Shown here: in pieces, positions 29,623-31,045 of the stretch | Layout: the number at the start of each line of letters is the position of its first letter | How positions within the stretch are numbered: the stretch's first letter is position 1 | Position numbers and translations under genes: made by a program | Assembly (NCBI GenBank): GCA_942492995.1 | Contig: OW818653.1 | Coordinates: 1,650,001-1,682,000 of the forward strand | Direction: 5' to 3' | Length of the DNA: 32,000 bases | Origin: an uncultured Erysipelotrichaceae bacterium | GTDB taxonomy: Bacteria > Bacillota_I > Bacilli_A > Erysipelotrichales > Erysipelotrichaceae | The notes under the pieces: generated by a model | Seen by the model: the letters and a program-made list of their open reading frames with translations, nothing else | What the model was told of the DNA's origin: nothing | Database searches by the model: none

Positions 29623-31045
29623 AGCTGAAAAGAAATTTCCAAAAAACTTTCTTTGGGGCGGAGCAGTTGCAGCAAATCAAATTGAAGGCGCATATGATTT
29701 AGATGGTAAAGGATTGAGTGTAGCGGATTTAAATGTCTTCAAGGAAATATCTGATCTTAGTAAAAAATCGAATCTTGAGATGAGTACTATTGAAATAGAG
29801 AATCTATTGAATTCTAAAACAGACTATTTTCCAAAAAGATACGGGATTGATTTCTATCATACGTATAAATCTGATTTAAAATTAATTGCAGGAATGGGAT
29901 TAAATTCTTTCAGAACATCAGTTAGTTGGGCTCGAATCTTTCCGAATGGAGATGAATTAGAACCTAATGAAAAAGGATTAGAATTCTATGATGATTTGAT
30001 TGATTCAATTATTAGTAATGGTATGGAACCATTGATAACCCTATCTCATTATGAAATGCCACTCAACCTAGCATTAAAATATAATGGTTGGCATAGTAAA
30101 GAGACTATTGATTTCTTTGTGAGATATTGCGAAGTTATATTTAAAAGATATAAGAATAAAGTAAAATACTGGATTCTTGTTAATCAGATAAATTTAATTT
30201 CTTATGAATCGTTTAATCATCTTGGTGTACCTTCTGATCGATTTGAAAATCTAGAAGAAGCAAAATATCAAGCACTCATAAATGAAATGGTAGCATGTGG
30301 AAAAGCTACGAGAATTGCCAAGGGGATTAACTCAGAATTTCAAATTGGGAATATGGCACATTATGGTTTCGCGTATCCCAATGATGGAAATTCAGAGAAT
30401 GTATTAGCTGCATTAAAGCATAATCAAATGGTATACATGTGTACTGATATTGCGGCTCGTGGAGTTATACCAGGCTATGCATTGAGATATTTCGATGAGA
30501 ATGAATTGAGTATAAAGATAAATGAAGAAGAAGAGAATGAACTAAAGAATACTGTAGATTTTATGAGTTTCTCATACTACTATACAAGAAATATTAGTTT
30601 TGAATCTAAGAAATCATTTCCTAATCCACATATTAAAATTAAGAATGAATGGGGTTGGGGAGAAGACGCAAAAGGTTTAAGAATTGCGCTAAATGATTTC
30701 TATGATCGTTATCAATTACCATTGATAATTGCTGAAAATGGGATGGGTTTTTATGAATCGCTGTCTAAAGAACATGAGTTGGATGATGATTATAGAATAA
30801 ACTACTATAGAAAACACATTGAGCAAGTAAAAGAAGCTATTTACGATGGTGTAAAAATATTAGGTTACTATCCATGGGGTCCAATTGATTTAGTTAGCTG
30901 TTCATCGTCAGAGATGAGTAAGAGATATGGTTTCATATATGTCGATATTGATGATTATGGCAAAGGATCAAAGAATCGATATTTGAAGAAGAGCTATAAT
31001 TGGATGAAAAAAGTTATTGAATCTAATGGTGATAAATTAGATTAG
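29615..31045 (+). CDS. GH1 6-phospho-beta-glycosidase homologue with Gln at the acid/base position
   Basis: [27 protein letters not shown], the nucleophile motif IIAENGMG, and phosphate-binding-type [10 protein letters not shown]. The expected NE(I/P) acid/base motif reads VNQIN (codon CAG 30185-30187, Q191). Confidence 0.85.

Follow-up and report, generated by a model that had tools for sequence, protein, structure and literature searches.

The acid/base glutamate of retaining glycosidases is held to be indispensable, and its engineered removal is the standard way of inactivating these enzymes. An uncultured Erysipelotrichaceae bacterium (assembly GCA_942492995.1) encodes a homolog of the 6-phospho-β-glycosidases of glycoside hydrolase family 1 (GH1) in which glutamine is found at this position. 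The gene lies in the stretch of 32,000 nucleotides analyzed here (contig OW818653.1, positions 1,650,001 to 1,682,000), which is referred to as the window and in which the first letter is position 1. The locus raises the question of whether the substitution is genuine and, if it is, what a GH1 protein can still do with it. A natural bacterial lineage that dispenses with the acid/base glutamate and keeps the remaining active site would point to a different chemistry or to an unusual substrate. Identification of the substrate would give a new specificity or mechanism in a well-studied CAZy family, would correct the blanket annotation "6-phospho-β-glucosidase", and could show how gut and soil Firmicutes handle activated plant or microbial glycosides. 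As the proteins concerned are ordinary soluble enzymes and are present in tractable hosts, the question is directly testable.

Glutamine at the acid/base position

The gene (29615..31045, plus strand) encodes a protein of 476 amino acids, P0001, which was assigned from its open reading frame, a PDB search, and Pfam. In a phmmer search of all PDB chains, the best matches are bacterial GH1 6-phospho-β-glucosidases (6WGD, 2e-135; 4IPL, 2e-129; 2XHY, 8e-124). The GH1 domain PF00232 is present in the precomputed Pfam annotation, and the AF2 model (pLDDT 87, pTM 0.90) resembles solved 6-phospho-β-glucosidases with a TM-score of about 0.9; its least confident segment in the barrel core is the loop of residues 191-200 (pLDDT 63). 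In the alignments with 6WGD, 4IPL, and 2XHY, Q191 lies beneath the acid/base Glu of the motif kvkyw(m/l)tfNE(i/v)n in a gap-free segment. The motif of P0001 reads LVNQ in place of the expected TxNE with its Glu, and N190 and Q191 are encoded by AAT CAG at 30182..30187 on the plus strand. An earlier note on this DNA had described a GH1 6-phospho-β-glycosidase homolog with Gln replacing the acid/base Glu. Both parts of this description are borne out, the family assignment by the PDB matches, PF00232, and the fold, and the substitution by confirmation of the alignment column against three solved 6-phospho-β-glucosidases. Proteins with this Gln are referred to as NQ and those with the canonical Glu as NE.

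The active site of 6-phospho-β-glucosidases has been defined by Michalska et al. in the numbering of LpPgb1 (PMC3605045). In the glycon (-1) subsite, Gln22, His134, Asn179, and Trp423 of LpPgb1 correspond to Q22, H145, N190, and W421 of P0001, which are invariant in the NQ clade, and Ala431 corresponds to the small residue C429. The acid/base Glu180 at the end of β4 corresponds to Q191 and the nucleophile Glu375 to E374, whose codon within the motif IAENG lies at 30734..30736 (plus strand) as computed from the ORF start. The phosphate group is bound by Ser432, Lys438, and Tyr440 in the L8a loop, which is longer by one residue; these correspond to the invariant S430, K436, and Y438, and the extra residue typical of 6-phospho-β-glucosidases, Gln/Glu435 in LpPgb1, corresponds to E433. 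By this correspondence, the L8a loop of P0001 (C429-S430-S-S-E433-M-S-K436-R-Y438) is encoded at 30899..30928 on the plus strand. In the aglycon (+1) subsite, Asn183, Arg267, and Trp349 are represented by N193, R282, and W348. Judged by alignment, P0001 departs from the LpPgb1 active site at two residues only, with Gln191 for Glu180 and Cys429 for Ala431; its nucleophile motif (IIAENGMG, with E374) and its phosphate-binding motif (S430..K436-R-Y438) are intact as had been claimed before. Within the clade, little or no variation is seen at Q22, H145, N190, Y322, E374, W421, S430, K436, and Y438; E374 is invariant in an alignment of 22 NQ sequences and is found, like Y322, in 100% of 42 Q-clade rows.

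In comparison with enzymes of EC 3.2.1.86 (6WGD from B. licheniformis, 4IPL/4IPN, BglA-2 from S. pneumoniae, 2XHY, BglA from E. coli, 3QOM, LpPgb1 from L. plantarum, and 3PN8, SmBgl from S. mutans), P0001 has 42-47% identity and a TM-score of about 0.9. The nucleophile motif, the glycon residues, the long L8a loop with Ser, Lys, and Tyr, the +1 residues Trp, Asn, and Arg, and a PTS operon context are common to both. In contrast to these enzymes, P0001 has Gln for the acid/base Glu and Cys for Ala431, belongs to a separate clade, and has a longer β1-α1 insertion (about residues 40-75) with an invariant K74-R75. Its NCBIfam scores also differ in that all four subfamily models stay below their cut-offs, the best score being 477.9 bits versus a cut-off of 623 (NF007356), and most clade members are labeled by NCBI only as "glycoside hydrolase family 1 protein". 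On its features of sequence and fold, P0001 is placed among the bacterial GH1 6-phospho-β-glucosidases as a divergent branch.

A single G-to-C change from GAG to CAG would suffice to produce the codon of Q191, and the earlier note had asked for a strain-specific mutation or a sequencing error to be ruled out. Both are excluded by the orthologs and the whole clade, which have Gln encoded by CAA or CAG. In a search of 5.8 billion proteins, NQ is found in 120 of the 120 best homologs (59-94% identity), all of which read W-I-x-x-N-Q-[IM]-N and which originate from Enterococcus, Coprobacillaceae, Longibaculum, Paenibacillus alvei, the Bacillus haynesii group, Carnobacterium, and Culicoidibacter, among others; a further 63 Q rows have the same residue, as do NQ proteins from genomes of the same genus and the same family. 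This conservation makes an assembly error irrelevant. Across the fetched NQ loci, CAA (19) is about as frequent as CAG (16) at this site, and the use of both codons indicates that Gln has been maintained through synonymous change. The reading frame is intact, and dN/dS is 0.02-0.09 among NQ genes of the same genus, where dS can still be estimated. NE is kept in six of six other GH1 paralogs of the same 2.0-Mb genome. The probability that Q191 is an artifact of sequencing or assembly, or that it arose by a recent mutation inactivating the protein of this strain, is negligible. Comparison of the homologs shows the Glu-to-Gln substitution to be real and fixed in the clade, with the gene, as judged from dN/dS, under strong purifying selection.

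Extent and origin of the NQ clade

For the phylogenetic trees, the columns covering the motif (residues 186-204 or 186-206) were left out. A FastTree phylogeny was computed for 171 GH1 proteins; a single branch in it (local support 85) has every one of the 42 Q rows on the same side, which corresponds to one change. An IQ-TREE phylogeny of 105 rows groups 63 of the 64 Q rows in one clade with an SH-aLRT of 94, the placement of the one Streptomyces row being unresolved. A scan with one genome per species recovered NQ genes in Bacilli, Clostridia, Erysipelotrichia, Coriobacteriia (Collinsella and Atopobium), one Streptomyces, and Pelolinea of the Chloroflexota. By its distribution in these trees and genomes, the NQ clade is judged to be old and conserved and to span Bacillota, Actinomycetota, and Chloroflexota; its hosts include soil, marine, and gut organisms.

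At closer range, the distribution of the clade is patchy. Of 20 further species in the genus, six encode a member, and only one of them an ortholog with 78% identity. In an even phylum sample of 399 genomes, in which at most four candidates were scored per genome, ten genomes matched at E <= 1e-140, all in the family of the window (9/48); this figure is a lower bound, and at this threshold, one of 16 loci checked (L115) had an NE gene only. Tandem NQ copies are frequent in this family of gut Erysipelotrichales. A genome of the same family (L117, G274:C4:86000-102000) encodes three NQ GH1 proteins in one IIB-IIC-IIA operon with interleaved genes for membrane proteins; two copies are of the core type described below and one is of the NQVNLIPVVQFGS type.

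Outside these phyla, a core-type NQ GH1 gene (NQINLIKFESFNHLG) was observed in Enterobacter ludwigii from strawberry (L119, NZ_CP116348.1 280096-291511), where it lies beside genes for a PTS EIIC and a carbohydrate porin on a conjugative IncFIB/IncFII plasmid. This copy is evidence for horizontal spread of the gene into Gammaproteobacteria.

A chromosome of Listeria monocytogenes encodes exactly one NQ copy next to four NE paralogs. A 2.9-Mb chromosome of this species (NZ_CP030101.1, containing L120 and L121) is labeled "plasmid unnamed" in the plasmid collection and has 12 annotated features. The Listeria member is presumably lmo0917, encoded in the lmo0914-0918 operon. This member is mentioned in transcriptome lists only, for example as induced in soil extract (PMC3179493), and papers touching on the operon are confined to omics studies. 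No account of a bacterial GH1 protein with a natural Gln at the acid/base position was found in the literature, the 11 L. plantarum enzymes of Plaza-Vinuesa et al. (2022) being outside this comparison. The NQ clade is apparently unstudied.

Operon and genomic context

The GH1 gene is preceded by a gene for a PTS EIIC permease of the lactose/cellobiose family (28345..29622, plus strand; TIGR00410, lacE subfamily, 309 bits versus a cut-off of 236). The likely start of EIIC is the ATG at 28345 behind the ribosome binding site AAAGGGGAG, the ORF listing having its start at the TTG at 28306. The EIIC stop and the GH1 start overlap by eight bases, and the GH1 gene is translationally coupled to this Lac/Cel-family EIIC. 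No EIIA or EIIB gene adjoins EIIC at the locus; elsewhere in the genome, two Lac/Cel-type EIIA and nine EIIB-type genes are found. A regulator of the RpiR/MurR family (259 amino acids; 27417..28196, minus strand) is divergently encoded and weakly matches the MurR/RpiR model of NCBIfam (E 3e-6, residues 33-224); its Longibaculum homolog carries the Pfam domain HTH_6 of rpiR type. In the divergent promoter region between the two genes, a cre-like box, TTGATAGCGCTTACC, was observed at 28210-28224, which suggests a possible catabolite repression of the operon. This box has two mismatches to the cre consensus, WTGNAANCGNWNNCW.

Downstream of the GH1 gene, a hairpin read from the sequence, GTACAAACT-CGAAACA-AGTTTGTAC, is followed by TTTTT (31100..31129). 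Situated between the GH1 gene and a convergent gene, it probably terminates transcription in both directions; it was missed by a consensus scan because of the few G-C pairs in its stem. The convergent gene (31222-31980, minus strand) encodes an integral membrane protein of the DUF975 family (Pfam, E 2e-24) and is probably unrelated to the GH1 protein. Directly upstream of the cassette lie glmU (24976..26337) and prs, encoding ribose-phosphate diphosphokinase (26334..27323).

The RpiR-IIC-GH1 cassette recurs in a genome of the same genus (G014) with identities of 56, 80, and 78%, respectively, and is also found in Longibaculum. As the flanks in G014 are different, the cassette is non-syntenic within the genus, and its recurrence between different flanks indicates that it moves as a unit. 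For the majority of the remaining NQ genes, the setting is an IIB-IIC-IIA-GH1 operon whose regulator is of the PRD/Mga type and contains an EIIA2 domain; HPr and EI are at times encoded there as well. Of 24 NQ loci inspected, about 19 have the NQ protein as the sole glycosidase of an IIB-IIC-IIA-GH1 or IIC-GH1 operon. The conserved neighbors (PTS parts, PRD/Mga or RpiR regulators, and sometimes HPr and EI) give no clue to the substrate, and the remaining neighbors are unrelated housekeeping genes.

A transporter co-evolving with the NQ enzymes was also considered and was rejected, as the EIIC of the window is no closer to its counterparts in the main NQ operons (24-30% identity) than to its own paralogs (27-35%).

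Candidate chemistry and its alternatives

The best explanation, to which we give just short of an even chance, is an active PTS-coupled phospho-β-glycosidase that would work with its nucleophile only, i.e. in a "myrosinase-type" manner, on substrates with easily leaving aglycones. The EIIC would import a β-glycoside that becomes phosphorylated at O6, EIIA and EIIB being supplied in trans. E374 would then attack the anomeric carbon and form a glycosyl-enzyme without protein acid catalysis. As the leaving group would not be protonated, turnover would be restricted to easily leaving (low-pKa) aglycones, for which aryl, acyl, enol, or thio groups, possibly anionic, are candidates. Subsequently, Q191 might position the water for deglycosylation, perhaps aided by a small anion or a group of the substrate, and glucose-6-phosphate would be released. 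Such acid-less chemistry is plausible for a protein with this set of residues. According to the PDB titles of 4ZE5 and 4ZFM, Gan1D-E170Q is a catalytic mutant and binds cellobiose-6-phosphate in the crystal, which illustrates the effect of this exchange on a canonical enzyme acting on a disaccharide and makes poor leaving groups unlikely substrates. The conserved context, with no clue to the substrate, counts against chemistry with the nucleophile only, as do two further points: canonical NE enzymes already cleave aryl phospho-glucosides, which leaves a gain from loss of the Glu unexplained, and E198, seven residues past Q191, is present in 83% of the clade versus 6% of NE enzymes and might be a displaced acid/base in the core subfamily.

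The last point leads to an ordinary 6-phospho-β-glucosidase in which another residue acts as acid/base, the candidate in the core subfamily being E198 in the ESFNH loop together with H202. Position 191 alone separates the 42 Q rows absolutely from 113 NE phospho-glucosidases, while K74, R75, E198, D208, Y323, and C429 occur preferentially in the Q rows. The core subfamily, which includes P0001, has the additional signature NQ[IM]NLIxxESFNHLG, in which E198, S199, N201, and H202 vary little or not at all; these residues are rare in NE enzymes. E198 occupies position +7 from the acid/base, a position that we take to contact the aglycone in plant GH1 structures (maize and rice), and the loop that follows the acid/base presumably borders on the pocket for the aglycone in other members of GH1. 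Judged from the alignments, this loop is diversified between the NQ subclades outside the core, which read NQINLIQFEPFNS, NQVNLIPxVQFGS, NQINSLQGWGEF, NQINLISFNSVGL, or NQINLLDFYSLGF. E198 and H202 are missing from the subclades NQVNLIPxVQFGS, NQINLISFNSVGL, and NQINLLDFYSLGF, which nevertheless keep the Gln; no alternative carboxylate is common to all NQ subclades, and no ionizable residue is both universal in the 42 Q rows and specific to them relative to the 113 NE enzymes. The low model confidence of the loop 191-200 further weakens a displaced acid/base, which we regard as unlikely.

Still less probable is a non-catalytic binder or sensor of phospho-β-glucosides, a pseudo-enzyme comparable to the Klotho domains. 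It would agree with the binding of intact phospho-disaccharides by engineered E-to-Q mutants, as given in the titles of 4ZFM and 4ZE5, and with the presence of several NE paralogs able to hydrolyze such substrates in NQ genomes. One of the two catalytic Glu residues is lost in Klotho-type proteins as well. Unlike these, the NQ clade strictly keeps the rest of its active site, and its genes belong to catabolic operons, in which they fill the slot of the hydrolase, usually as the only glycosidase. The relaxed conservation of the remaining active site that is expected of a pseudo-enzyme is not seen across the clade: E374 and Y322 are fully conserved across phyla, and the low dN/dS values point in the same direction, as do tandem NQ copies diversified in the aglycone loop, which are expected for enzymes of differing specificities. 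An altered second step, in which an anion or another acceptor resolves the glycosyl-enzyme by phosphorolysis, thiolysis, or transglycosylation in the manner of chemical rescue, is a very unlikely alternative in its own right. In acid/base mutants of retaining glycosidases, loss of the carboxylate removes the charge repulsion against anionic acceptors, and the same relief would be available to NQ proteins, whose nucleophile and glycon site are strictly kept. Nonetheless, the first step would still require a good leaving group, and no partner enzyme, such as a β-phosphoglucomutase, is conserved beside the gene. On the whole, the sequence data favor a catalytic protein, although a hydrolase of activated substrates, a transglycosidase, and a non-catalytic binder are not told apart by them.

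In nature, Gln in place of the acid/base Glu is well known from plant myrosinases, the GH1 thioglucosidases of EC 3.2.1.147, which agrees with the comparison drawn earlier. They catalyze hydrolysis without a protein acid, are extracellular, act on non-phosphorylated glucosinolates, and make use of ascorbate. P0001 shares the Gln with them, and the chemistry would be the same if the NQ clade works alike, whereas the clade differs in its 6-phosphate loop, its cytoplasmic location, and its coupling to the PTS. No myrosinase is found among the best 60 PDB sequence matches or the top 50 fold matches of P0001, and the top matches of both kinds are all bacterial phospho-glycosidases. From these matches, the likeness to plant myrosinase is convergent, with no closer kinship than to other GH1 proteins. 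The earlier suggestion of thioglucosides or glucosinolates as substrates, made with a gut association in mind, finds no support: the nearest relatives are bacterial 6-phospho-β-glucosidases, no sulfatase or other glucosinolate-related gene occurs among the conserved neighbors, which are PTS parts and regulators only, and soil and marine hosts are represented alike with gut hosts. In addition, the one bacterial PTS/GH1 system for glucosinolates in the literature consulted uses a β-glucoside-specific IIB/IIC/IIA PTS and not one of the Lac/Cel family (PMC8660893). Gan1D-E170Q has the same Glu-to-Gln exchange and the same fold as P0001; it differs as a laboratory mutant for substrate trapping from the NQ clade, which is natural, ancient, and selected.

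A broader proposal is that the NQ clade constitutes a distinct class of bacterial cytoplasmic phospho-glycosidases without a protein acid/base, which would be specialized for PTS-imported glycosides whose aglycones are self-leaving and possibly anionic, be they acyl, thio, or activated aryl groups, or would have their glycosyl-enzyme resolved by an anion such as phosphate. This proposal is tentative, and we consider it possible rather than probable. If it is true, the NQ clade would be a parallel, in bacteria and dependent on phosphate, to the solution found in myrosinases, and the tandem copies with their diversified aglycone loops would serve different metabolites of plants or microbes.

In other genomes, small proteins of membrane or exporter type are sporadically encoded beside or between NQ GH1 genes, namely DUF6198/YitT-like, YgjV, EamA, and aromatic-acid exporter proteins (L116:6760-7383, L117:7750-8400, L117:5741-6277, L013:9550-10425, L015:9422-10300, and L033:10187-11194). 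These proteins may export a non-sugar aglycone.
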